Assembly: GCA_963803975.1 (NCBI GenBank)
Contig: CAWDOY010000053.1
Span: forward strand, 32,001 to 96,000
From: an uncultured delta proteobacterium
GTDB taxonomy: Bacteria; Desulfobacterota; WTBG01; CAIYCZ01
Direction: 5' to 3'
DNA: 64,000 bases
The position numbers and the translations under genes were made by a program. The notes under the pieces were generated by a model, which saw only the letters and a program-made list of their open reading frames with translations, was not told the DNA's origin and did no database searches. Of this stretch, positions 8,725 through 24,966 are shown piece after piece; the stretch's first letter is position 1; each line of letters opens with the position of its first letter.

Positions 8725-8753
8725 TTGACACGAGCCGGACCTTTTTCTATACT
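8725..8753 (+). promoter_or_regulatory. Sigma70-type promoter for the ferritin-like gene
   Basis: TTGACA-17 bp-TATACT. Confidence 0.7.
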
Positions 8754-8820: not shown

Positions 8821-9289
8821 ATGGCAGACAAAAAACTTGAAGAAGTCATTGACTATCGCAATAAAGCGCGAGGAAGAGGCTATCGCCTTTTACCAGGGTC
8901 TTTATAACCGGGTGCAGGATGAAACTGCCAGAGATACGCTGCAGTTTCTTGCCGGAGAGGAGAAAAAGCATAAAGAATTTCTGGTCAGATACCGGCAGGG
9001 AAACTATACCGCTGATGCCCTGAGGATGAGCACGGTGGTCGATTACCGGATTGCCGAACACCTTGAGAAGCCGGACCCTGCGGCAGATATGGAAAGCAAG
9101 GATGTGTACCTGGTGGCGGCGCACCGCGAGCTTGCATCATACAATTTCTACACAGCACTTGCTGCGCTTCACCCTGACGGCGAGCTTAAACAGCTGCTCG
9201 TAAAAATCGCCGGCGAGGAACTGCGGCACAAGGAAAAAGTCGAATACCTCTACGCTAACACCGCGTTCCCGCAGACTGACGGCGGCTGA
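8821..9289 (+). CDS. Rubrerythrin/ferritin-like di-iron protein (frameshift near 8856)
   Basis: RBS GGAGGG, MADKKLEEVIDY joined to AIKREEEAIAFY...LAGEEKKH...RELASYNFY...AGEELRHK (two ExxH motifs). Confidence 0.88.
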
Positions 9290-9294
9290 GCTGC

Positions 9295-10123
9295 TTATCG
9301 CAGGCTTCTGCCCAGGGCAACAAAAAGGTCCCTGGTTATTACACCCGGATGCCCTTTCTCTTTGGCGACCTGCTCGCTGAGAGCAATTATTTTGTCAATA
9401 AGCTGCTTCGCCGTCTTGCCTGTCAATGAGCACATCCGCAAGCGCCTGTATGGTGTGGGCGCACCACAGGCCCTTTCCTTTAAGGTGCTTTTTCACCGTA
9501 TCGACCAGCGCAAACTCCTCTATCACCTGTACTTCGCACTGCTTTGCAAAATCAGTGCTGCACAGCAGGCATGCTGCCGCGTGGCTCATGGCAAGCTCTT
9601 TGGGCTCAGGAGGATTTTCCTGCACCTGCCGGTAGCTGAAATCCTTTGCCAGGTCAGCAAAAGCTCTGGTCGTATTGATCGTGGTAATGCCTTTTATGCC
9701 CTGCTGCCTTGTTATTTCCTCGGCACGCTTCTGCACTTTTTTGCCCGTTTCAAAGGAAACCGTCCCGTCAGACATTGACGAGCTCAGGATGAAGCGCGCA
9801 TGGCAGCACCAGTGCATGGTCTCTGTTTCAATGACATCGTCATGATAGACCCCGCTTATATCCAGCTCGGCACGGCATATCTCGGAGAGCTTCGGCGGGC
9901 AGTAGCCGCACATTTTAATATAGTCGTTGGAATACTTCGGCACCCATTTCTGTTCGTCCGGCTTGAATGCATCGCCGTATTGTTTAAAGAACTCCTTCCT
10001 GCTCATCGAATTCCGGAACGTTTCAAAACAGGTGGTTGAGCAAAACACCAGGTCTTTAAGCTCAATAAATTTCATTACCAGGTCTTTCCCGCACTGGTGA
10101 CACAGTATTTGATCATCACTCAT
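9295..10123 (-). CDS. Unknown Cys-rich protein B (TRASH-like finger + two 4-Cys/PCP_red-like repeats); frameshift near 9408 hides the true C-terminus
   Basis: CHQC...CSTTC; CGYC-x7-C...WCCH; CLLC-x7-C...WCAH. The shifted frame continues QLIDKIIALSEQVAKEKGHPGVITRDLFVALGRSLR*, matching the end of the paralogue. Confidence 0.85.
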
Positions 10124-10198
10124 GAGTAATTCTCCTGTGGAAAAGGGGGTATCCCCGATAAGAAAGGGGCATCCCCGCTCTTGTGAAGTGATTATGTA

Positions 10199-11014
10199 TC
10201 ATTTGATGGACCGGCCGAGCGCCAGGTAGTGGATGCGGAAATGCCCGCCCTTATACTCCTTTTCCTTCATAACCTTGCGCGATTTATCAATCAGCTTTTT
10301 TATCTTACCCATGTCAACGTTCGGGTTCAGAAGCATTGATGACATCTCATAGCGCATGTGACCGCAGTAGGGAAAATCAAGCAGCGCTTCTACCTGCGGC
10401 AGGTTCTTCTCGGCCTCCTCGGTCTCCCGCAGGCATTCATCCATGAACTTTTTGTCACACTGCACGCAGGCAAGATAGTGGTCATGCTCTTCTGCAGGCG
10501 GCGGAGGCGGGACGTCCGGATACGGGGCGTAGCTGAAGTCTTCCATCAGCTCACCCGTTGCCATGGCCAGCGTTACCGTGCTCACCCCGGCATTGCCGCG
10601 CTCGCGGGCAATCTCTTCAGCTTTTTTTATGACCTTCTGGACGACGTCCCGTGTGACCGAGCCATCAGAGAGCATGCAGCTCAGCGCATAGATGGCATGG
10701 CAGCACCAGCGCATGGAGATATCATCGTGCAGCTCCTCAAAATAGGCGCCGCAAAACGGGCGCACCTCGCGGCATTTGAGCACCAGCGGGCATTCCTGGC
10801 AGGTGCTCATGAAGCGGTCAACGACCGGCCCGAGAGCGGCAAAATCTATTTTCTCCAGGTCCAGGTTTTCCATGCGCTCGCGTCCCTGCTCGGCACAGTA
10901 TACCGAGCAGTGGAAATTTCCCATGCGCTTGATGGGGGTCTTCGTTATTGCCTTGCCGCACACCGCGCAGTTTTGCTGCTCAGCAGCTTCAGTTTTCTGT
11001 TTCTGCTTTTCCAT
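10199..11014 (-). CDS. Unknown Cys-rich protein A, paralogue of 9295..10123
   Basis: CAVC...CSVYC; CQEC-x5-C...WCCH; CVQC-x7-C...YCGH; ends LALGRSIK. Confidence 0.85.
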   Translation of the reverse strand: MEKQKQKTEAAEQQNCAVCGKAITKTPIKRMGNFHCSVYCAEQGRERMENLDLEKIDFAALGPVVDRFMSTCQECPLVLKCREVRPFCGAYFEELHDDISMRWCCHAIYALSCMLSDGSVTRDVVQKVIKKAEEIARERGNAGVSTVTLAMATGELMEDFSYAPYPDVPPPPPAEEHDHYLACVQCDKKFMDECLRETEEAEKNLPQVEALLDFPYCGHMRYEMSSMLLNPNVDMGKIKKLIDKSRKVMKEKEYKGGHFRIHYLALGRSIK

Positions 11015-11049: not shown

Positions 11050-11361
11050 TTATTTTTTATCCGGCTTCATGGGGACGAGATTCATCCCGCACTTGGGGCA
11101 TTTGCCGGGCTTGTCTGATATTACGTCCGGATGCATGGGGCAGGTATATTTCACCGCAGGCTCCTGATTTTTTGCCACCAGGTCCATGCCGCACTTGGGG
11201 CACTTGCCGGGCTTGTCCATTATTACATCAGCATCCTCGGGCATGGGGCAGGTGTAGGAAACTTTTCCCTGCGCTGCCTGCGAAGTCGTTACCGCACCTG
11301 CTGCGAGCAGCACTAGAGCTGCACAGGTAACAGCAATAATAATGACTACCTGTTTTTTCAT
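11050..11361 (-). CDS. Periplasmic heavy-metal-binding domain protein (two YTCPM...CPKCGM-L domains)
   Basis: GGAGG RBS, signal peptide, YTCPMPEDADVIMDKPGKCPKCGMDL and YTCPMHPDVISDKPGKCPKCGMNL. Confidence 0.9.
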   Translation of the reverse strand: MKKQVVIIIAVTCAALVLLAAGAVTTSQAAQGKVSYTCPMPEDADVIMDKPGKCPKCGMDLVAKNQEPAVKYTCPMHPDVISDKPGKCPKCGMNLVPMKPDKK

Positions 11362-11516: not shown

Positions 11517-14500
11517 TTATATGTTTTTACACTCCGTGTTTCTTTTCCAGAGCAGATAGATTGCCGGATACACCAGCAGCTCCATTAGAAACGAGGTAAA
11601 CAGGCCGCCTACCATGGGCGCGGCGACGCGCTTCATGACGTCAGCCCCGGCTCCTATAGACCACATGATGGGCATGAGGCCCATGGCTGCGGCGGCCACG
11701 GTCATCATCTTGGGACGGATGCGCTTTACCGCGCCGTGGATGATCGCTTCATGCAGTTCGGCCATGTTTCTGAGCTTATTATTCTTTTTTGCCTCATCAT
11801 AGGAAAGATCCAGAAACAGGAGCATAAACACGCCGGTCTCCGCGTCAAGCCCCATGAGGGCGATCATGCCGACCCAGGCGGCAATGGATACATTATAGCC
11901 CAGGAAGTACATGAGCCACACCGCGCCCACCACCGAGAAGGGCACCGCCAGCATGACCACCGCTGCCTTGAACGCGGACTTGGTGTTCATATACAGCAGC
12001 ATGAAGATAAGGAAGATGGTCACCGGCACCACAACTTTCAGGCGCTCGCGCACCCTGAGCATATTTTCATACTGGCCGCTCCAGATAAGGGAATACCCGG
12101 TCGGCAGAGCTACATTCTGCATAACCGCTTTCTTGGCCTCATCCACATAGGAGCCCACATCCCGGTCAGCTATGTCCACAAATACATAGCCGGCAAGCAT
12201 GCCGTTTTCATCACGGATCATGCTCGGGCCCGAGATTGAGCGTAACTTCAGCCAGTTCAGCCATGGGGACCTGGATGCCATTCTTTGTGGTCACCAGGAC
12301 CCGCTGCAGCTGGTCGAGGTTGGCCCGCAGATCGCGCGGGTAGCGCAGGTTTATGGTATAGCGCTCGCGGCCTTCAACGGTGGTGGAAACGGTTTCGCCG
12401 CCGATAGCGTACATGATGACGTTCTGCAGATCTTCGATGGTGAGGCCATAGCGCGCAAGAGCTTCCCGCCGGGGAGTGAAATCCACAAAATAGCCGCCGG
12501 CCACACGCTCGGCATAGACGCTCCGGGTACCGGGAATGGCCTTGACAACTTTTTCAATGGCTTCGCCGGTGCTCTGGATTTTGCTGAGGTCGGCCCCGAG
12601 GATTTTTATCCCGATAGGCGTCCGCACGCCGGTGGAGAGCATGTCAATGCGGCCCTTAATCGGCATGGTCCAGGCATTGGTGTTGCCGGGGATCTGAATG
12701 GCCTGGTCCATCTCGTTGATGAGTTCATCATAGGACATGGTGTCAGGCCAGATGCGGCGAAATGCTGCTTTGAGCCATCCGGGGGCCCAGGATGAGTACC
12801 AGCGGTCTTTTGCGCGCCACTCAGAATGGGGCTTGAGCACCACGGTTGTTTCCATCATGGAAAACGGGGCCGGGTCAGTGGAACTTTCAGCTCGCCCGGC
12901 CTTGCCGAACACTGAGACCACTTCCGGGAAACTTTTTATGATGCGGTCCTGGGTTTCCAGGAGCTTCTGCGCCTCGGTGACGGAAATGCCGGGAAGGGTT
13001 GTCGGCATATACAGAATTGTGCCTTCATTGAGCGGCGGCATGAACTCATGGCCCAGTCTTAGGTAGACGGGTACCGTGGTTGCAACTATAATGATGGCCA
13101 GGGCAATGACTTTCTTTGGATGTCTGAGCACAAGCCGGCATGGTTTTTCGTACAGCGCGAACAGGATGCGGCTGATTGGGTGCTTCTCCTCCGGATAGTA
13201 TTTGCCGACAAAAAGCGCGTTCATGATCGAGGCCAGAGGCCGCGGTTTTATCTGGAACGGGTCCATCCGCGCAAAGAGCATGCGCACGGCCGGGTCAAGG
13301 GTTACCGCCAGCAGGGCAGCTATCGCAATGGCAAAGGTCTTGGTGTAGGCGAGCGGCGTGAACAGCCGGCCCTCCTGGTCCACCAGGGTAAAGACCGGAA
13401 GAAATGAGACCGCAATCACCGCCAGGGAGAAAAATACCGAGGGCCCCACTTCAAGGAGGGCTTCCAGACGTATCTTGTGAAAGTCGCCTTTGCGGCCTCC
13501 CTCCTGCCAGAGCTCAAGCTTTTTGTAAGCGTTCTCGACCTCCACAATAGCGCCATCCACCAGCACACCGATGGAAATGGCGATGCCGGCAAGGCTCATA
13601 ATATTTGAGGTAATGCCCCATAAGTACATGGGAATAAAGGAGAGCAGCACTGATATGGGTATGGTGATGATGGGAACAATAGCCGAGGGAAAGTGCCAGA
13701 GGAAGAAGAGAATGACCAGGCTGACGATGATCATTTCCATGATCAGCTCTTCCTTAAGGTTATCAATTGATTTCTGGATAAGTTCCGAGCGGTCATAGGC
13801 GGTGACGACCTCAACACCTTCCGGGAGCGATGCTTTCAGCTCTTCAAGTTTGCCTTTGACTCGATGGATAACATTCAGCGCATTTTCCCCGTGGCGCATA
13901 ACAACGATGCCGCCCACGGCATCGCCTTCACCGTTGAAGTCAAGCACGCCCCGGCGGATCTGCGGCCCCAGTGCAATAGTAGCAACGTCTTTCAGCAGCA
14001 CCGGGGTGCCCTTTTCGTTTGTTTTAACCACCACCTTGTCCAGGTCAGCAGTGGATTTCACATAGCCCTTGCCCCGCACCATGAATTCGGTGCCGGACCA
14101 TTCAATGAGCCTGCCGCCCATTTCGTTGTTGCTCTTTTTAATTGCTTCGGCCACTTCCATGAGAGACAGCCGGTAGCTCTGCAGCCGGTTGGGATCGATG
14201 GTCACCTGGTACTGCTTCTGAAATCCGCCGATGCCTGCCACCTCTGCCACCCCGGGAACGCTCTGCAGGGCATAGCGCAGGTACCAGTCCTGAAAAGTCC
14301 GCAACTGCGCGAGGTCGTGTTTGCCGCTCTTGTCCCGCAGCACGTACTGGAAAATCCAGCCCACGCCGGTGGCATCAGGGCCCAGTTCGGTTTTGGACCC
14401 TGCCGGAAGACTGCCCTGGATTTTGGAGAGGTATTCAAGCACCCGGCTCCGGGCCCAGTAAATGTCGGTGCCGTCCTGGAAGATGACATAGACATAGGAG

Positions 14501-14767
14501 AAGCCGAAGTCGGAAAAGCCCCGAATGGCTTTGATGCCGGGGGTGCCCAGGAGTGCCGCGATAATCGGGATAGGTGACCTGGTCTTCAATGATGTCAGGG
14601 CTTCTGTCCCAGCGGGTGTATACTATGACCTGGGTGTCTGACAGGTCAGGTATGGCATCCAGGCGTATCTGCTTGAGGGTGTACACAGCGGCGACCACTG
14701 CCACTGCCACCAGCAGAATGACCAGGACGCGGTTGTTCGCTGAGAACTCAATAATTTTTTTTATCAT
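11517..14767 (-). CDS. cusA: CusA/CzcA heavy-metal efflux RND permease (frameshifts near 14570 and 12240)
   Basis: LDAIPDLSDTQVIVYT, DIYWARSRVLEYL, EFMPPLNEGTILYMP, WTMPIKGRIDML, RIRPKMMT. Confidence 0.95.
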
Positions 14768-16306
14768 TGCCCGCCCCCGGTAACAGCCTGGAGGGCTGCC
14801 TTCAGAGAGGATTCAGAATCGACGAGGAAGTTGGCGGAGGTTACAACCCGTTCTCCCGGCCTGAGACCCGAGAGCACTTCAAAATAACCTTCGCTGCGAA
14901 TCCCGATGGTGACCTCGACGGGTTTGATTTCATCGCCCTCGCCTGCGACAAAGACATAGCTGCGTGTGCCGGTGCGCATAACTGCTGATTCCGGAACTGC
15001 CGGCTTCCGCCCCAGATCATAATTCAAGCGGGCATCACCATACATGTCGCCCTTCAGCAGCAGTTCAGGATTGTTTATAATGAGCCGCGCCTTGAGCGTG
15101 CGGGTCTGGGGATCAAGATACGGAAACAGGAAACTGACGTTCCCCGGAAAGCTTTTGCCGGGCCAGTAGGAAAGGGAGAACGTCACCGGCATCCCCACTT
15201 TCACATAGGGCAGGTCTGATTCATAAATGTCTGCTTCTGCCCAGACTACTGAAAGGTCAGCCACTACCATAAGAAGCTCTCCCGGCATGATTTTCTGGCC
15301 GGGCAGGACCTTTTTCTCAATCACATAGCCGCTTGACGGCGCGTACAGGGTGAGATACTTTTCCACCTCGCCTGTTTCTTCGAGCCGGTCAATCTGCTGC
15401 TTGCTGATGTCCCAGAGTTTCAACCGCTTGCGTGCAGAGTCAATCAGCTTTTTCCCGCCTTCGGCAATGGAGGCATCAGCACTGTGGGATAAATTTTTTG
15501 CAATAGTGACGGCAGTCAGATATTCCTGCTGTGAAGAAACCAGTTCCGGGCTGTATACCGTGAGCAGTGGCTGGCCTTTTTTTACTTCCTGACCGGTTAC
15601 ATTCACATACAGCTTATCAACATATCCGTCTATCTTGGTCGTGACCGTGAACATCCTGGTTTCATCCGGAACAATGCGCGCCGAGGTTCTCAGTTCTTTT
15701 ACAATATCTCTTATCTCCACGGTCCCGAAGGTGAGCCCCATATGTTTTCTGTGGTAGTCATTGATATTCACGGCGGCTAATCCTGATGGTGTGCCCGAGG
15801 ACTTTTCTTCCGTCTCAAACGGCACCATGTCCATGCCCATGGAATCCTTGCCCGGTTTATCGCTCACCTCGTTGGGATTCATGGTGGAGCGGTACATGGT
15901 TTTTTTAACCGGGGCCGTGCCTGCTGCCGGGGCAGTCTTCTTCTGTTCCACCAGGCGCATGCCGCAGATGGGACAGTCGCCGGGCTTGTCCGAGGTAATC
16001 TGCGGGTGCATGGGGCAGGATGTACAGTCTTTTTCTGCGCGGCTGCAGCAGTGGTACTGTTTTTACCCTGCGGCGCAGCGCTTACTTTCTGTTCCACCAG
16101 GCGCATGCCGCAGATGGGGCAGTCGCCGGGTTTGTCAGAAGTAATCTGCGGGTGCATGGGGCAGGCGTAGAGTTTTTTGTGCTGGTGCTCAGCCTGTTCG
16201 CTTTTTGCCTGATTCTGCGGCCCTGCCTGCTGCTGACATGAAGTAAATAGAAAAGCAGACACCAGCACAAAGACATAAACCATAACGTGTAATTTTATCT
16301 TTTCAT
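14764..16306 (-). CDS. cusB: CusB-type RND membrane-fusion protein with two N-terminal heavy-metal-binding domains (frameshifts near 16298 and 16022)
   Basis: CPMHPQITSDKPGDCPICGMRL x2, YRSTMNP...KDSMGMDMVP, YSPELVSSQQEY, VVTSANFLVDSES. Confidence 0.93.
15941..16165. repeat. Intragenic ~79 bp direct duplication encoding an identical metal-binding domain
   Basis: 15941-16019 and 16087-16165 are nearly identical, differing at synonymous positions. Confidence 0.9.
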
Positions 16307-16323
16307 GGTAAAGTCTCCCTTTT

Positions 16324-17728
16324 CTACTTATGGCCGGTATGATCATGCTGTGCTGCACTGTCAGCATTGGCTGCGGTTCGAAACAATCTTTTTCCCACCA
16401 CCACTTCAAGATCAGAGAGCTCCTTTTCATAATCCGCAAGCAGCTCGCTTGACTGGGTCTCGAAATTACAGAGCGTAATCTGGGCGTCAATAAGGGCAAG
16501 AAAATCAACGGAGCCGACTTCGTAGGCTGAAAGCGCAGAGTTCAGCGACTGCGTTGCCTGGGGGATGATGCCGGTCTGGTACAGCTGTATAAGACTTGCA
16601 GACCTTTGCGCTTTCGCCACATGATCATGGATCTTGTACGCGATTTCGTTTTTTACGGCAGCATATTGAGACTTGGCTTCCTCCATCTGGTGGAATGTTT
16701 CAGCGACCTTTTTGTCCTGCTTGTTTTTAAACCACAGGGGAATTTTAAAGCCCACGAAAAATGAAAATACATCGGGACGATCAAATGACTGCCCGGGGAC
16801 TTTAACCAGTGCGTCAGAAGTTGTTCCATTTTCATTCAGGACCGCTCCGGGTAAAATACCGCCTGGTTCCCGGTAGCCCTCACGCTGTCCATACATGGCA
16901 GTTACATTTACACTGGGGAAGTACTGCTTTTTTGACAGCTTATAATCAGCTTCGTTTTTTGCAATCACGTTCTGCAGGCTTTGCAGAACCGGGTTTTGCG
17001 CCAGCGCCATGTTCCGAAGCTCTGCCTCGTTGATGGCTACGGTTCTTTTTGTTACTGACAGGAACGCCGTCCAGCGGGGCTGACGGCTCGCGGTTGAGGA
17101 GCCGGTTCAGCTCTGCGATATATGATGTTTTCTTCTGCTCAAGCTCAACCAGGCGCTCAATAAATTTTGACTGCTCCACCTGGGCCTTGAGGATGTCCTG
17201 CTGCAGGCCTTTGCCGACCTCATATTTTTTTTGCGCAATTTCCACAAACTTTGCCATCAGGCCCTTATTCTTCTCCGCAGTCTGCATGTGCGCGTAATTG
17301 ATATACAGATCATAGTAGGCGGTTTTTACATCCCTGATGAGCTTTAGCTTGCCGTCATCAAGCAGCCTGTCAGAGCTTTTGGCCTCCTGGATTGCCATTT
17401 TTTCCTTCAGCGATGTAATGCCCGGCATCGGTATGTTCTGGCTGATGGCAATCTGCTTCATCGTCATGTCGATCTCGTTGAATTTGAAGTTATCGGTGTT
17501 CAGATTGGCAACGCCGAAGGCCAGCTCCGGGTCATCCCAGGATTTTTCCTGGGGCGGCCGCTGCCACATGGCATTGCGTTTCTGCTGCAGAGCCGATATT
17601 TCAGGATTTGCCTTCAAGGCTTCCTGTATCAGCTGCTCAAGGTCCAAGCTGTTTTGCCCCTGGCAGTTCACCGAGAATTGAAATAATAATAAAATGCCGC
17701 TAAGGGTTATTATGACTGCTCGTTTCAT
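16324..17728 (-). CDS. TolC/CusC-family outer membrane efflux channel (frameshift near 17040)
   Basis: LEQLIQEALKANPEI, KYEVGKGLQQDILKAQVE, AYEVGSVDFLALIDAQ; immediately upstream of cusBA. Confidence 0.92.
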
Positions 17729-17829
17729 AGATTATATTCCCCCTTATTGGGTTTTCTGGATGGCCCTGAGAAACAGTATGATAGCTGAAATGTATGCATA
17801 GTTATCAACTCATCGATGGGCATCTATAT

Positions 17830-18276
17830 TTACATTGTACTATCAAACAGCTGAAAGCCATAAAAAACGTAGGGGTTTATATCGGTATAATCTATGAGAA
17901 AAAATCCAACCCCGAAAATATAGGGATTAAAGTTTATACCGGTCATTGCAGAATATACATCAATCGACTCAAAACCCATGCGCACCCCCACCGCAAAGTA
18001 ACTAGCGACGAAACCCCCCGGCACCGCAAAGTATAAACCGTGCCCGTCAATCATTTCTACGTCAACCCCGCCGCCATCAGTGAATGTTACGTGTGAGTGG
18101 GTTAATCCTGCTTCATCCAGATCTCTAAAGTTATTATTGGGAAATGTCAGAAAATACAGTGCATATTTGTTCCCTTTTACCGTGTTGTCCTGCGCCAGGG
18201 CGCTGCCGGCAAAAGCCGCCGTCAGCAGCAGCGAGCAGAGGCAAAAAACAATTCTTCTGCTACCTCCTTTATTCAT
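17830..18276 (-). CDS. Hypothetical exported protein (148 aa, aromatic/Gly-rich, beta-strand-like)
   Basis: GGAGG RBS and ALA-Q signal peptide cleavage site. Confidence 0.75.
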   Translation of the reverse strand: MNKGGSRRIVFCLCSLLLTAAFAGSALAQDNTVKGNKYALYFLTFPNNNFRDLDEAGLTHSHVTFTDGGGVDVEMIDGHGLYFAVPGGFVASYFAVGVRMGFESIDVYSAMTGINFNPYIFGVGFFLIDYTDINPYVFYGFQLFDSTM

Positions 18277-18333
18277 CCTGAACCTCCTGATTAAGCATTA
18301 TGACTGCAAGGCCCCTTTTTACTGAGTGTATGG

Positions 18334-18630
18334 TCAGCGGTTTCTCATGCCGTGATTCCCGCCGTCGCCGTTCCACATATTATTCCAGTTGTCCTGCATT
18401 TGCTCGCGCCGGTTCTGCTGCCGGTTTCTCATATCGTCCCATCCATCCTGCCAGCGCTCCTGCCTGTTGTTCCAGTTATTGCGCCAATGGTCACGGCGGT
18501 TGTCCCAGTTATTACGCATGTTGCTGAATTGCTTATTCCCGTTGCGATGGCCTCCGTCTCTGGCATAAGAGGGAATCACCCATAATAAACTCAGGGTAAG
18601 TATGAGTATGATTAGTTTGAGATGTTTCAT
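18334..18630 (-). CDS. Small secreted Asn/Arg/Trp/Asp-rich low-complexity protein
   Basis: AGGAG RBS, signal peptide ending SYA, then NNWDNRRDHWRNNWNNRQERWQDGWDDM. Confidence 0.8.
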   Translation of the reverse strand: MKHLKLIILILTLSLLWVIPSYARDGGHRNGNKQFSNMRNNWDNRRDHWRNNWNNRQERWQDGWDDMRNRQQNRREQMQDNWNNMWNGDGGNHGMRNR

Positions 18631-18653
18631 GGGATCTCCTTAACAATAGGTTT

Positions 18654-18686
18654 GTGGATTTCCCCGGCATGGCCGGGGAAATCCAC
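18654..18686. other. Perfect 15-bp-stem hairpin between co-directional genes
   Basis: GTGGATTTCCCCGGC-atg-GCCGGGGAAATCCAC; no U-tract. Confidence 0.8.
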
Positions 18687-18712
18687 GCCAATCCTGTTTA
18701 ATCAGCATCTGT

Positions 18713-19181
18713 TTAATAATATAAATAGGGAAGCTGCTGGGAACTTTTGTAGTTGCCCTGGTTATCAAGAATCACCAGGTAGGTTCCATTGTCTGCCCCG
18801 GTACTGCGTAATAATCTCGGGAATTTTATCTCCATCGAGATCAGCGATGTCTATCCCTGATGCCCGTACGTAAAACTGATTCGTTTGGCCGGGAATTTCC
18901 GGAAGCAGCTTTGAAGTTTTCACCTTTCCCGTATTATCAAGAATGAGCAGATAAGACCCGCCGGCAATGGATGTTATTTCCGGAACACCATCGCCGTTTA
19001 AGGTCTGCTGCCTTGAACTGGTTCATCATGCCGCCGCTTCCTCCCATCATTCCGCCTTGCCGCCACCACCGGGCCCGCCGCCCATCATATTATTTGCTCC
19101 CGCACTCCAGGCACAGGGCAGTATTGCCAGCATGAGTGCCAGTGTCAAAAACGCGGTTAATTTAATTGAACATGTTTTCAT
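18713..19181 (-). CDS. Secreted Met/Gly-rich protein with two FG-GAP-like DxDGDxxPE repeats (several frameshifts; not in the ORF track)
   Basis: Manual reading: MKTCSIKLTAFLTLALMLAILPCAWSAGANNMMGGGPGGGG..GGMMGGSGGMMNQFKAADL/NGDGVPEI...YLLILDNTG...IADLDGDKIPEI.../YLVILDNQGNYKSSQQLPYLYY*; AGGAG RBS. Confidence 0.75.
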
Positions 19182-19360
19182 GATTATCTCCTTTTGCTTG
19201 AATAGGGGGTCTTAAACCAGCAACAAGACCCCTGGTTGAACCTTTAGCACAATTGTTTAATGTAATTAAAGTGGAAATCTTTAAAATTGGAATAAAAACG
19301 CTGCTCTGCTGATCATGAATAACCTGCTGTAAAAACAGGGCAGACGGGTGGTGTTTGATA

Positions 19361-19784
19361 TTACAGGAGAAGACAGGAGTTTTTAAGGAATAGCGGGGGA
19401 GGTAAGGAAAGATGCCCGTCGTAGGATTTGGTAACAGCGGCAGCTGAAAAAAAGCTCATATTTCCTGCCGGGAGACTATGCCCCAAACCTGATGCGAGCT
19501 TCTTTTTCTGAGAACCATCGGTGCTGCTTAAAAGAAAGTTATTGCCGACAGTTACTGGTGTTTTGTTGTCGCATTTGTTGAAGTCACACGTGCCATCAGC
19601 GCTGTCTTTTTGCAGACTGCCGAAAGAGGGTCCGGACGGGCCCTTGCTACTGCAGTCGCACATGCACACCGAGCCTTTGCAGCAGGAGCAGCAGGGACGC
19701 CTGTTTTGTCTGCGCCGGGACGTATGTTGAAAAAACAATTCCCGAAATGGCCAGAAGCAGTAATAGTATCTTTATAAATTTCAT
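19361..19784 (-). CDS. Cys-rich exported leader-type protein ending PPPLFLKNSCLLL (DUF2946-like architecture; frameshift near the N-terminus)
   Basis: MKFIKILLLLLAISGIVF joined to CCSCCKGSVCMCDC...CDFNKC...LPPPLFLKNSCLLL; first gene of the leftward copper unit. Confidence 0.7.
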
Positions 19785-19949
19785 GCTGATTGCTGATTTT
19801 AACGAACTATCGCAGTAACCTGTTTCAGTTATGTAACCTATAATTTTAAACCATGCTCAAAAGAAAAACCTGCGCTTGCGGAAAAATTATTATTCAAACG
19901 TGGCAGAAAAGACTGTTGACAGCTATTCGGTAATATATTAATTATTAAT

Positions 19950-19966
19950 ATACCCCATGGGGGTAT
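19950..19966. promoter_or_regulatory. CsoR-type operator palindrome between divergent promoters
   Basis: ATACCCC-atg-GGGGTAT, flanked by TTGACA on + (19916-19921) and TTGACA on - (19966-19971); 40 bp upstream of csoR. Confidence 0.85.
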
Positions 19967-20006
19967 GTCAAGGCAAAAAATAAAAATGCTATAAAAAGGA
20001 AGCGGT

Positions 20007-20288
20007 ATGATCAATGCGACGGTAAAAAAGGATTCCTTAAACCGGCTGAAACGCATCGAGGGACAGGTGCGCGGCATTATGCGCATGGTGGACAGCGGGG
20101 AGTACTGCATCGACATTATAAACCAGATAACCGCTGCGCAGAAAGCTCTTGACAGCGTCTCAAAAAATGTCATGAAGCGCCACGTGGAAAGCTGCGTCAG
20201 TGAAGCCATCCGCCGCAATGGCGGAGAAAAAATGATCAATGAGCTTATTCAGACCGTATTTAAATACAAGAGCAAAGGCACCCGCTGA
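20007..20288 (+). CDS. csoR: CsoR/RcnR-family copper-sensing repressor
   Basis: RLKRIEGQVRGIMRMV...YCIDIINQ...RHVESC (Cys, His and Cys ligands). Confidence 0.93.
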   Translation: MINATVKKDSLNRLKRIEGQVRGIMRMVDSGEYCIDIINQITAAQKALDSVSKNVMKRHVESCVSEAIRRNGGEKMINELIQTVFKYKSKGTR

Positions 20289-20433
20289 AAAAACATAACC
20301 GCAGGCAGAGTGTGTAAGGAGTGGAAGCGTTAAGGAGCCGCGAGAGTAGAGTTTCTAACTCCTAAACTCTCGACTCCAAACTCATAAAGCTTTGCTCTGT
20401 GGTTTAATACTTTTAATGGAAAGGACGACAGCC

Positions 20434-20644
20434 ATGCAGAAGAAATTGAGTGTTGAAGGAATGACCTGTGAACATTGTGTTAAGAGAGTTCAAAAGATTA
20501 TTGAAAAATTTCAAGGAGTATCTGATGTTCAGGTAATCCTTGAACAGAAGGAGGCGAGCTTTTTCCTGTGACCCGGCTCAGGCTGATGTGGCAGGGATTG
20601 TGAAAGCCATTAATGACTTCGGCTACAGCGCAGCAGAGAAATAA
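20434..20644 (+). CDS. copZ: CopZ copper chaperone (frameshift in the T-run near 20562; not in the ORF track)
   Basis: MQKKLSVEGMTCEHCVKRVQ...IVKAINDFGYSAAEK*. Confidence 0.9.
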
Positions 20645-20776
20645 GAAATCATTTACCGCAGAGCACGCCGAGAACGCGGATGAACGCAGATTATTAGCGA
20701 TTAGATAAAGCTTAACAATCTGCGAGTATCGGCGCAATCTGCGTCCTTGATAAAAAGTCAGTTAACTTACAACAAC

Positions 20777-23470
20777 ATGGAACGAACTGATATAATCCCC
20801 GTATTCGGCATGACCTGCGGCCACTGCGTGAAGGCAGTGAACATGGCGCTGCAAAATGTCAACGGTGTGCTGGCATTAGATGTTTCCCTTGAAGAGTCCA
20901 GGGCGCAGGTCACCTATGATGATGCGCTAACCAGTCTTGCATCTCTCAAATCAGCAATTATTGAAGAAGGCTACAGTGTCGAGCCTGCTGCTGAGGGTAA
21001 GCCCGAAGAAAGTGCAGCGCAGGAGCAGGCAGCACCGGAGATCGTCCCTCAATCAGTCACTTCAAACTTTTCCATCCAGGGAATGTCCTGCGTTAACTGC
21101 GCCCAGGCGATTGAGAAAGGCCTGAAGAAGTTCCCCGGCATTCTGCAGGCAACGGTTAATTTTCCACTGGAGCGCTTGACCGTCGAAAAAGATTCATCTC
21201 TTTCTGATGAAGAGGTCATTAAGAAGGTTGCAGATATCGGCTATGTCGCAGCGTCTTTAAAGGAGAGGGAGGGTGGCAAAATCACCTTCCGCATCGAGGG
21301 GATGAGCTGCGTTAACTGCGCCCAGTCCATTGAAAAGGCTTTTAAAGGGGCAGCGGGTATAAAAAGCGTTGCCATCAACTTCTCACTTGAAAAAGGTTTT
21401 GTTGAGTTTGACGAGGCGCTTACTGACCGGCAGAAGATACTTGAAATAGTAAAGGACGCGGGCTACAGCGCCATTGAAGCAGGTGAGGAGCAGAAGGCCT
21501 CAGGCATTGCGCGCAGGGAAAAGTTCCGCTTCTTTTTTGCCCTGGCGCTGACCGTTCCGCTGGTCGTGTTCATGTATCTCATGCCCTTCGGCCATGTCGG
21601 CACCAACTATGTAAATTTTGTTCTTGCCACCCTGGTGCAGTTTGTCTCCGGCATTACCTTCTACAGCGGCGCCTACCATTCGTTGAAGAACCGCTCCACC
21701 AACATGGATGTGCTCATCGCCCTGGGCATATCAGCGGCATACTTTTACAGCGTCTTCTCGCTTTTCTTCATCGACCCCCACGCCCACACCTTCTTTGACA
21801 GTTCTGCCATGCTCATCACCTTCATTCTGCTGGGCAAAATGCTTGAAGCCAGGGCAAAAGGCAAAACCAGCCAGGCTCTGCAGAAGCTGCTCTCGCTGCA
21901 GGCGGACCAGGCGCGCCTCATTGAAAACGGCAAAGAGCGCATGGTGGCGGCATCGTTAGTGAAGGTCGGGGATGTCGTGCTGGTGCGGCCCGGTGAAAAA
22001 ATACCGGTGGATGGCAAAATAATCGTAGGCGCGACTGCGGTGGACGAGTCCATGATTACCGGTGAATCCATTCCGGTGGAGAAGGCAGCAGGAGATGCGG
22101 TCACCGGCGCGACACTGAACACCTCCGGCGTCATCAGGGTGCGGACAACAAAGATCGGGAAAGACACGCTGCTGTCGCAAATCATAAAGATGGTGGAAGA
22201 CGCCCAGTCAGACAAGGCGCCCATCCAGCGCATTGCGGACACGGTATCAAATTACTTTGTCCCGTTTGTGGTGGCCGCGGCGCTCATCACGTTTGCGCTC
22301 TGGTACGCCGTGCTGACAATTCCGCCGCCGGAAGGGTTTTCACGATTTCTTTTTTCATTCCAGCTCATGATAGCGGTGCTGGTCATAGCCTGCCCGTGCG
22401 CGCTGGGACTGGCGACCCCCACGGCCATCATGGTGGGAAGCGGAGTGGGGCTGAAGCGGGGCATTCTGTTTAAGCGCGCTTCAGTGCTTGAGCGGATTTC
22501 AAAGCTTGATGTTATTCTGTTCGACAAGACCGGCACCATTACCGCCGGCAGGCCGGAAGTGGTCGGCATACATCCCTGCAGCAGCTTATAATGTTCAGGA
22601 CGTGCTCGGCATAGCTGCCGGCGCGGCGGCCAATTCATCACACCCGCTGGCCCAGGCCATTGTCAGGAAGGCGCAGCAGAAACGGCATTGCCGGGGAACA
22701 GGTAACCGACGTCCGGGAGATGAGCGGTAAGGGCATTCTCTGCAGCTGGAACGGAAAACAGCTCAAGGTCGGCAGCAGCAGGTTCATTGCCGGGGAAAAA
22801 GAGCTTCCGCCGGACGTGCGGCGGCTGCGGGAGCAGATTGATGAGGGCGGCAGGACAACGGTATATGTTTCCCTTGATGACACGGTGCTGTGCATTTTTG
22901 CCCTGTCGGATGTTGTCAAGCAGGACTCCCGCGCGGCTGTCCAGGCGCTCCATAAGCTCGGCATTAAAACCGCGCTCATCTCCGGTGATAATAAGAAAGT
23001 CGCCCATGACTGTTGCCCGGGAGGTGGGCATTGACGAGGTTGAAGCAGAGGTGCTGCCTGCGGATAAGATCACGGTTGTTAAAAAATGGCAGCAGAAGGG
23101 TTTCAAAGTCGGCATGGTGGGCGATGGCATTAACGATGCCCCGGCACTGGCGCAGGCTGACGTGGGCATTGCCATCGGCTCCGGCACTGATGTGGCAAAG
23201 GAGACCGGAGACGTGATCCTGGTAAAGAACAGCCTGATGGATGTGGAGCGCTCCATCCGCCTGGGCAGAAAAACGCTTGAGACCATTAAACAGAATTTTT
23301 TCTGGGCGTTTTTCTATAACGTCCTGATGATACCCATAGCGGCAGGCATTCTCTATCCGGTGAACGGGATCACCCTCAAGCCCGAGTGGGCGTGCGTGGC
23401 CATGTGGTTTTCCTCCATTACCGTGGTGAGCAATTCGCTGATGCTGAAGAGGTATGAGAAGAAATTGTAG
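20777..23470 (+). CDS. copA: Cu(I)-translocating P1B-type ATPase with three N-terminal HMA domains (frameshifts near 22585, 22680, 23005)
   Basis: GMTCGHC, GMSCVNC x2, [38 protein letters not shown] and MWFSS motifs. Confidence 0.96.
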
Positions 23471-23593
23471 AAGGTCAAAAGGTCAAGAGGCAAAGAGGGA
23501 ATAAGGCGAAGTGAATTGTGAATCGTTCAAACAGTACTCTTGAACCCTTGAACCCTGTAGTTCAATCCTCAAACCCTACAGAAGGAGTTAATT

Positions 23594-24495
23594 ATGAAAT
23601 GGGAAGAAGATGCACGGCAGGTGGTGGATGCAATTCCGGTCCATGATATTATCAAGAACATGATTATCCTCTGGGCTGAGCGGTGCGCGCGCAAGGATAA
23701 GCGGAATGTAGTGACACCGAGGACATGATCAAGACGCGGGATGATTATTTTGAATGGTTCGGAGAGGCAAAGATAGCAAAAATTCAGCAGGCGCGGGATT
23801 CGGGGCAAACAGATACTGACCTTGACCCGGAGATTGCGCTCAATAAAGACCCCGCCCTCTATAAAATCGAGCTCTGCCATTCGCGGTTCTTCGGCTGCGA
23901 CCGGGACGTGATAAATGTGAGGGCACTGGGCCCCAAGATCAAGCAGAAACTGGAAGAGCTGAAGATCACCGAGATACTGGCGGACAAGGCATTTGAAGTG
24001 CTCATGCCGCACAGCGTTTTCACCGTATCCATATCAGGCTGCGGCAACATCTGCACCGGAGCCGAGTCCAAGGACATCGGCATCCACGGCGCCGCCAGGC
24101 CCAAAGTCACCGACAAGGAGTGCATTCAGTGTAAAAAGTGCGCTCATGCCTGCCTGGACCGGATTATTAGTTTTGAAGACGGCAGGCCCGTCATCAACGA
24201 AGACATCTGCAGGCTCTGCGGCAACTGCATCCAGGTCTGCCCCACCGGCGCTATCGCGTTTGACAAAAAGGGCTGCAGGATCATGGCCGGCGGCACCTTC
24301 GGCCGCTTCGCGAAATACGGGACCGAGCTTTTCCGGTTAACGGATACTGATATGATCTATCCGATACTGGAAGCGTCGGTCAATCTCATAAAGGATGAGC
24401 TGAGCGAAACCTACGAAGACAACTTCAGCCTGCTCATGCGGCGCACGGGCATTTCACCAATCTTTGAGCATCTGGCACGGGTAGGAAAGATATAA
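23594..24495 (+). CDS. PCP_red-like N-terminal domain + nitrite/sulfite reductase 4Fe-4S domain + 2x[4Fe-4S] ferredoxin (frameshift near 23722)
   Basis: AGGAG RBS; MKWEEDARQVVDAIP...WAERCARKDKRNVVT; CHSRFFGC, SGCGNIC...DIGI, CIQCKKCAHAC, CRLCGNCIQVCP. Confidence 0.85.
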
Positions 24496-24570
24496 GAGTA
24501 AGGCACCCGCCTTCGCTTGCGCTACTGCGCGGCCAGGCACAAAGGCACAGAGGCAAAAAGGAAAACTACA

Positions 24571-24966
24571 ATGGATAAACCCGTTGACGGGTTCTATTTC
24601 ATGTTTGAGATCGGCTGGTTTCTTGACCTGCTGATTCCAACGCTGGTGCGGGTTAAAGACGGCAGCCTGTATCTTGTGGGCAGCAAGCCCTGCAATATAA
24701 AGGATTTAAAACCCTGCTGCATCCCCTGCGGCGGGGCAGAGGAATGTAAAAAGCTTTCCTTTGATGACGCGGCGCTGAAAGCGTTCAGGAGTGCTGATTC
24801 ATTGCGACGCTGTTCACGCGGACAGATGACCTGGCTGAAGAACTGCAGAGAGCCCTCGATGAATCAGGAAATCCGTGACCGCTATTTTAACACCAAGGGA
24901 AAACTGCGGAAGGAAGCGACCCTGGAAAGAATTATAAACGATTACCAGGTGCTCTCAAAGATATAA
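24571..24966 (+). CDS. Hypothetical Cys-containing protein
   Basis: MDKPVDG... with PCNIKDLKPCCIPCGGAEEC; co-directional with the cop unit. Confidence 0.65.
   Translation: MDKPVDGFYFMFEIGWFLDLLIPTLVRVKDGSLYLVGSKPCNIKDLKPCCIPCGGAEECKKLSFDDAALKAFRSADSLRRCSRGQMTWLKNCREPSMNQEIRDRYFNTKGKLRKEATLERIINDYQVLSKI

Follow-up and report, generated by a model that had tools for sequence, protein, structure and literature searches.

Copper defence is known mostly from aerobes. The 64,000-nucleotide stretch of DNA from an uncultured Desulfobacterota bacterium analysed here (the window) carries a copper island in which the cus export genes are followed by two neighbouring genes, A and B, for Cys-rich proteins related to each other, raising the question of what such proteins do behind a copper pump and whether they belong to any known family. 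The original prediction answered with a heterodimeric cytoplasmic module for metal or Fe-S binding, co-transcribed with cusCBA.

Paralogues A and B in a copper island

The island is arranged around an operator-like palindrome, with csoR-copZ-copA running rightward and cusCBA-HMBD-A-B running leftward; the palindrome heads the leftward run and lies 9 kb upstream of A (Table 1). The window's CsoR, whose best NCBIfam match is RicR, carries the Cys/His/Cys fingerprint that the available text of PMC11672702 assigns to Cu(I)-type CsoR, and the palindrome was compared with the streptomycete operator consensus, TAC-N9-GTA, as given in the accessible part of PMC3902906. At no more than one mismatch, the operator pattern matches twice in the window against a shuffle mean of 0.8, which is not above chance, so the operator-like designation is carried by position and conservation.

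Table 1. Copper island of the window, with coordinates counted from the first letter of the window.
Feature	Position	Strand	Basis
Paralogue B, 275 aa in relatives, frame-broken in the window	9295..10123	-	ORF and relatives
Extra base in B, approximate position	9407..9407		RNA-library contigs and relatives
Paralogue A, 271 aa, TRASH-like finger and two Cys-triad/PCP_red-like repeats	10199..11014	-	Intact ORF
Small protein between cusA and A, N-terminal hydrophobic stretch and two HMBD (PF19335) domains	11050..11361	-	E 1.5e-27
cusA-type RND transporter, two frame breaks	11517..14767	-	Intact copy in relative passes TIGR00914
cusB-type membrane fusion protein, frame break	14764..16340	-	Label from position and sequence
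cusC-type outer membrane protein, frame break	16324..17728	-	Label from position and sequence
CsoR operator-like palindrome	19948..19968		17/20 defined positions of streptomycete consensus
CsoR repressor, Cu(I) fingerprint C34/H59/C63	20007..20288	+	PF02583 E 2e-29
CopZ chaperone (HMA), frame break	20434..20644	+	Family match
CopA P1B-type ATPase, frame breaks	20777..23470	+	Intact copy in relative passes TIGR01511
AsrC-like Fe-S protein, PCP_red-like, NIR_SIR and Fer4, frame break	23576..24495	+	Recurrent family neighbour
CCxxC protein of ~133 aa, no family	24553..24966	+	Recurrent family neighbour

Several further genes accompany these. One encodes 98 aa without a Pfam match (18334-18630, minus strand); the protein opens with a leader-like segment, carries repeats rich in Asn, Arg, Trp and Asp, and is conserved upstream of cusC in relatives (L066, L054, L072). 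A second small protein, with a CCSCC...CMCDC cluster (19364-19738, minus strand), is possibly exported and metallothionein-like; its relatives, with a leader-like start, head several cus units (L066, L072, L075). The AsrC-like and 133-aa CCxxC proteins recur in copper islands of the family in two versions (e.g. L078). Convergent with B across a 5-base gap is a rubrerythrin/ferritin-like gene (8837-9289, plus strand) with a near-consensus sigma-70 promoter at 8725-8753.

The open reading frame of B starts at 10123 and meets an early stop at 9395, giving 242 aa, while the 37 residues that complete the protein are encoded in a different frame, which ends in ALGRSLR and reaches 9295. The original prediction had placed a frameshift near 9408, and we find it at about 9407, with the ALGRS end recovered once the frame is repaired. 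The break is an assembly error of one surplus base, because the base is absent from contigs of three of four RNA-library runs (X4, X16 and X17; the omission is not seen in X1), because a 97% identical homologue is an unbroken 275-aa protein, and because six other genes of this island (cusA, cusB, cusC, copZ, copA and the AsrC-like one) are likewise frame-broken relative to their homologues; the same observations rule out a genuine frameshift or recoding. Counted across positions 11517-24495 of the window, at least seven genes are broken in this way, which points to an error-prone assembly.

A and B are confirmed as real, conserved paralogues: they share 29% identity (E 2e-30), and against close relatives synonymous changes exceed non-synonymous ones in both (57:40 in A, 40:13 in B). 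The predicted absence of signal peptides agrees with a simple Kyte-Doolittle hydropathy check, in which neither protein showed a signal peptide or membrane helix (best 19-residue means of 0.89 for A and 1.32 for B). RNA-library contigs from one study span A and B, a coverage that is no demonstration of transcription. The region between the two genes holds two short GGGGAT(G/A)CCCC palindromes (10140-10190), and a contig of run X4 is missing 20 bases at 10159 in this gap.

An undescribed family with a narrow range

The original prediction recognised no described family with this layout, and our searches bear it out. Nothing scored above cut-off in Pfam or NCBIfam for A, B, their paralogue C (see below) or 26 family members, and neither the PDB sequences nor the ESM Atlas, where a blank indicates neither novelty nor absence, gave a usable match; the open-access literature searched yielded no account of the family. 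By these comparisons the A/B family is undescribed, and its arrangement of domains is new although the copper system around it is of a known kind.

Searches with A yielded 42 relatives and searches with B 88, named almost without exception 'hypothetical protein' in their sources. A profile search of 1.84 billion representatives returned 85 matches; 15 reach E 1e-30 or better, and at the weak end many cover the finger only. Low matches covering only positions 3-45, in several stretches, proved to be unrelated treble-clef repeat proteins and were dropped. The family occurs in 26 of 61 relative genomes, all of the window's class, and in 8 of 401 genomes sampled from the phylum, again in that class only. 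Outside the class it is found in Schekmanbacteria (four of five genomes), in one Spirochaetota protein and in a distant clade with a Dehalococcoidia member. The Spirochaetota protein (P0034), of A type, is extended at its C-terminus by a helical domain of 110 aa that weakly matches DUF2621. In a quickly built tree, in which long branches meet, A, B (including B2 and B3) and C form distinct subfamilies with support of 99 each.

A finger, two repeats and invariant Cys and His residues

The motifs and spacings read from the DNA in the original prediction, an N-terminal finger and two Cys/C-H repeats, were all present in A and B as described. In A, the finger is C16-x2-C19-x16-C36-S-x2-C40 and the repeats are C72/C75/C81-x21-W103CCH and C183/C186/C194-x21-Y216CGH; B has a finger of C8/C11/C28/C32 and, in an intact homologue (P0045), repeats of C72/C75/C83-x21-WCCH and C185/C188/C196-x23-WCAH. 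The second gap of the triad is x5 in repeat 1 of A and x7 in the other three A/B repeats. That the internal repeat is real is shown by the match between the two halves of the family alignment (HHalign probability 98%, E 5e-13). The proteins are 271-301 aa long with 13-16 Cys, and in a 26-row alignment of A, B and C twelve Cys together with C105, H106, H179 and H219 are invariant, the full set in A numbering being C16/19/36/40, C72/75/81, C104/105 and H106, H179, C183/186/194, and C217 and H219. The C subfamily has 84% mean column identity and high surface conservation.

The AlphaFold model of A has a pLDDT of 86 and a pTM of 0.81, and the whole model has no Foldseek match at E 0.001. The description of the finger as TRASH-like stands for its motif and its resemblance to known structures, with 2DAS as the best PDB sequence match of the family profile (E 0.31) and as a loose structural neighbour of the finger in the A model (Z 4.2, rmsd 9.5, 49 aligned), but not at the level of Pfam, where the finger falls below cut-off for Arc_trans_TRASH (13.6 versus 27 bits) and zf-FCS (14.4 versus 22.4 bits). 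Metallothio_Pro also gives a weak match, to the finger only (21 versus 33 bits).

The claimed likeness to PCP_red fares similarly. The helical part of each repeat resembles AAA+ lids and the PCP_red-type structure 2L09 (Z 4.0, rmsd 4.1, 61 aligned with the A model), the best Z being 6.2 (VIA), a value that in these model comparisons is within the range of common helical arrangements. In Foldseek, through which the fold of the triad part was compared, repeat 1 alone matches the PCP_red structure 2KRU (TM 0.64 by target, 24% identity, E 0.061), and RuvBL lids match it as well as 2KRU does. Pfam PCP_red (PF08369), by contrast, scores 12.7 bits against a cut-off of 32.5, with weak matches in 7 of 26 members (best E 0.001). 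Whole-model Foldseek rows for histone H2A-H2B were ruled out (TM 0.17-0.23, rmsd about 14).

A third paralogue and its chaperone-like neighbour

The genome of the window encodes a third paralogue, C (301 aa), on another contig (C15), directly behind an HMA/CopZ-like gene, and A and B are therefore not a self-standing pair. C lies off the copper island (L005:8659-9813, G000:C15), with a cupredoxin-like gene, by a weak Pfam match, just upstream. Genes of a conserved CopZ-like clade lie upstream of C in all 23 loci, no more than 1.3 kb away in 20 of them and no more than about 2 kb away in the remaining three, and judged by gene neighbourhood this is the tightest pairing of the family. Complex prediction gave C and the CopZ-like protein a score of 0.45 against 0.00 for the best control, the pair concerning C and not A or B; of 157 solved pairs 116 reach the mark applied, as do 2 of 215 mismatched ones, but in the range up to 0.60 it is reached by only 18 solved pairs and by both mismatches. 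Contacts agree between runs at 87% or more and the partner has a pLDDT of at least 84, and the modelling lends weak support to a C-CopZ complex.

Among the 26 genomes with the family, seven encode A and B, four A without B, ten B without A and four C only, and one holds an unclassed fragment. An obligate A-B heterodimer, which the original prediction had implied, is unlikely on this survey, in which each of the three paralogues is met with on its own. In close relatives A and B are separated by an inserted gene of 620 aa (L066:2143-4005, L107:8783-10645).

Linkage to copper genes across genomes

We counted neighbourhoods for the 44 of 116 de-duplicated copies, the window's own included, that have at least 2 kb on both sides, scoring a csoR, copZ, copA or cus gene within 5 kb; for the L005 copy the sole such neighbour is the CopZ-like gene. 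A copper gene accompanies A in 12 of 12 copies, C in 12 of 12, B in 8 of 11 and B3 in 2 of 2. The proposed linkage to CsoR, CopZ, CopA and CusCBA is thereby upheld for A, C and most B, but it fails for B2 (1 of 3) and for Schekmanbacteria (0 of 4, one copy having a P1B ATPase 5.06 kb away), and the existence of homologues unlinked to metal loci, named beforehand as counting against the copper reading, is in part what we found. Among 42 genomes of the class, 21 have the family and CsoR, five the family only, none CsoR only and 16 neither, counts that are inflated by kinship and incomplete genomes; genera g6, g10 and g11 each include genomes of the 'both' and the 'neither' kind. In the ten loci examined where A stands head to head with csoR, every intervening gap contains a TAC-N9-GTA box (three of these loci were in the training set), and the detached CopZ-C pairs of L156 and L161 each have their own box. 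The CopZ-C pair of the window's genome has no operator scoring 14 or more. Taken together, these counts make the copper link strong in the home class and not universal.

C-like copies also occur in other settings, one type (L053, L184, L185, L165) in a conserved LPS-type gene cluster, labelled by eye, and a second (L182, L183) flanked by DUF169 on one side and a dehydrogenase-like gene on the other.

Two predicted criss-crossed sites

Both triads and both C-x-H motifs are retained in 117 of 128 near-full-length proteins, and one lacks the first C-x-H only. The remaining pattern is confined to ten proteins of one distant clade, which retain triad 1 and the second C-x-H and have jointly lost the first C-x-H and triad 2. 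The simplest reading of this joint loss and joint retention suggests two criss-crossed sites, each built from the triad of one repeat and the C-x-H of the other, of which the distant clade retains one; this is one clade and one evolutionary event. The triad of repeat 1 is modelled less surely when folded alone (pLDDT ~60) than in the whole A model (~70-78), a weak hint in the same direction, and the family alignment, at a Neff/L of 0.2, is too shallow for covariation. Members of the distant clade (P0155, P0157, P0160, P0218, P0225, P0226), one of them named Dehalococcoidia, keep half of the ligands; a plasmid search with the clade gave no match.

Comparison with known copper and metal proteins

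The family shares the CxxC-x16-CSxxC N-terminal finger with TRASH/MYM-type treble clefs (PF08394, PF06467; 2DAS), but this sub-cut-off finger makes up only about 35 of the 271 residues of A. The helical part of repeat 1 is like PCP_red (PF08369; 2KRU, 2L09) and AAA+ lids, whereas the family unit is doubled, is opened by W/Y-C-x-H and is preceded each time by a Cys triad; the available part of the DPOR di-copper paper (PMC12022308) has nothing on PCP_red. As a Cys-rich module tied to a CopZ chaperone, it recalls the Archaeoglobus fulgidus CopZ with its Fe-S domain and CcoG, as covered in the accessible text of PMC7558416. In contrast to A. fulgidus CopZ, the HMA protein is here a separate gene, no sequence or fold match to that protein was found, and none of 26 family members has an HMA domain match, which leaves no Fe-S/HMA fusion among them.

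Csp3 and the copper-upregulated Cu(I) binder MymT are likewise cytoplasmic and Cys-rich, on the available text of PMC7558416 and PMC11672702, yet the A/B/C proteins are much larger, have a lower Cys density and appear to have a three-domain layout in place of a Cys-lined four-helix bundle; nor are they short peptides. Neither Pfam nor NCBIfam matched A, B, C or the 26 members to Csp3, no Csp3-type four-helix bundle is among the fold matches listed, and 13-16 Cys in 271-301 aa depart from the size and Cys share of metallothioneins (MymT, SmtA). Whereas csp3 is rarely copper-regulated, the family sits behind CsoR boxes. The window shares the C/H/C CsoR, TAC-N9-GTA operator, copZ and copA with the CsoR-copZA regulons of Streptomyces lividans and Bacillus subtilis, and islands of its type differ in adding CusCBA and several undescribed Cys proteins.

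Proposed role and alternatives

The reading we favour, tentatively and at somewhat short of an even chance, is that the family is a CsoR-controlled cytoplasmic Cu(I) acceptor, which would take copper from a CopZ-type chaperone and hold it until export by CopA and CusCBA. Copper would lift CsoR repression, so that A and B would be made together with the pumps; the putative N-terminal treble-clef finger may hold a structural Zn or offer a first docking site; and the repeats would pack head to tail to form two criss-crossed sites, site 1 from C72/C75/C81 with C217/H219 and site 2 from C183/C186/C194/H179 with C104/C105/H106 (A numbering), which would accept Cu(I) from the chaperone and buffer it ahead of export. 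A, B and C would be paralogues that can each work independently of the others instead of being tied together as parts of a dimer. Several observations weigh against such an acceptor: 13-16 Cys in 270-300 aa are a poor ratio for a store, compared with about 13-20 Cys per helical bundle in Csp3 (available text of PMC11672702); the high surface conservation, at its clearest in C, is more like that of an enzyme or docking protein than of a sponge; some copies stand off copper loci, including three of 11 B; and the genome's own CopZ-C pair is without a high-scoring operator, while the window's operator is distant from A. A more elaborate version, in which the family would be the core of an anaerobic copper-detoxifying enzyme system, appears doubtful: the dedicated CopZ clade would load Cu(I) on criss-crossed sites of Cys/His or Fe-S type, while PCP_red-like domains on both sides would let the AsrC-like Fe-S protein dock and drive a redox step, such as one that strips sulfide from copper, reduces Cu(II) or rescues copper-damaged clusters.

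CxxC-x5-C with a distal Cys is a [4Fe-4S] pattern of WhiB and iron-staple proteins, and the triads might accordingly hold [4Fe-4S] clusters in an Fe-S redox protein that exchanges electrons with the AsrC-like protein, for example in reducing Cu(II) for the chaperone or acting on copper-sulfur species. This is possible, at a rather low probability. The AsrC-like protein (NIR_SIR, Fer4, weak PCP_red) recurs beside A, B or C in many loci, strong surface conservation and copies outside copper loci would suit an enzyme, and section 12 of PMC7558416, in its available text, lists two cupric reductases of the Fe-S kind, CcoG and A. fulgidus CopZ. The protein would act in the manner of the latter, in which the Fe-S domain reduces Cu(II). 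Yet three of the four A/B repeats have x7 instead of x5, no WhiB or iron-staple chain is among the fold matches listed, each site has an invariant His, many loci (e.g. L065, L066, L067, L070) have no AsrC-like gene nearby, and copper in an anaerobe is mostly already Cu(I) (same source, in the part available). Treble clefs and Cys3-Cys/His sets often bind Zn, and the same ligands could instead make three Zn sites in a docking or regulatory module, whose lid-like domains would dock on CopA, the AsrC-like protein or a protease until copper displaced Zn and switched the interaction. The likeness of the helical units to AAA+ lid and PCP_red domains and the orphan copies, which would fit a general regulator, speak for such a module; it is nonetheless unlikely, as the proteins show no DNA-binding domain, their resemblance to lids is of middling strength, and the tight C/CopZ-like pairing points to metal transfer.

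Two further alternatives are highly improbable. An obligate A-B heterodimer co-transcribed with cusCBA would explain why A adjoins a B-type gene in the window and in L047/L069, L100, L101, L113, L117, L118, L119, L122 and L125, and its subfamilies are old and separately conserved; against it stand the genomes with A, B or C alone, the family f4, in which 10 of 11 genomes have members but none an A-type match, and the loci in which A and B are split by another gene (L066, L107) or lie at opposite ends of the island (L067, L070). The family might equally be a passenger with a copper-unrelated role, riding a mobile copper island, as the B2 orphans and the Schekmanbacteria copies, which lie beside DUF169 or within a cluster of LPS genes, would allow, but copper islands hold its three subfamilies at several distinct places, the operator is often followed directly by A, and detached CopZ-C pairs keep a box of their own.

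Implications for copper handling in anaerobes

The narrow range of the family, one class and a few distant lineages, limits its general weight. Within that range, it probably adds a folded, soluble protein with three predicted metal sites to a CsoR regulon of uncultured sediment Desulfobacterota, and it comes with a candidate partner chaperone and a precise predicted ligand map. Should the proposed role as a Cu(I) acceptor hold true, the family would represent an extra step in the copper defence of oxygen-free habitats, and the identity of its metal, whether Cu(I), Zn or Fe-S, would show how strict anaerobes rich in Fe-S enzymes handle intracellular copper.
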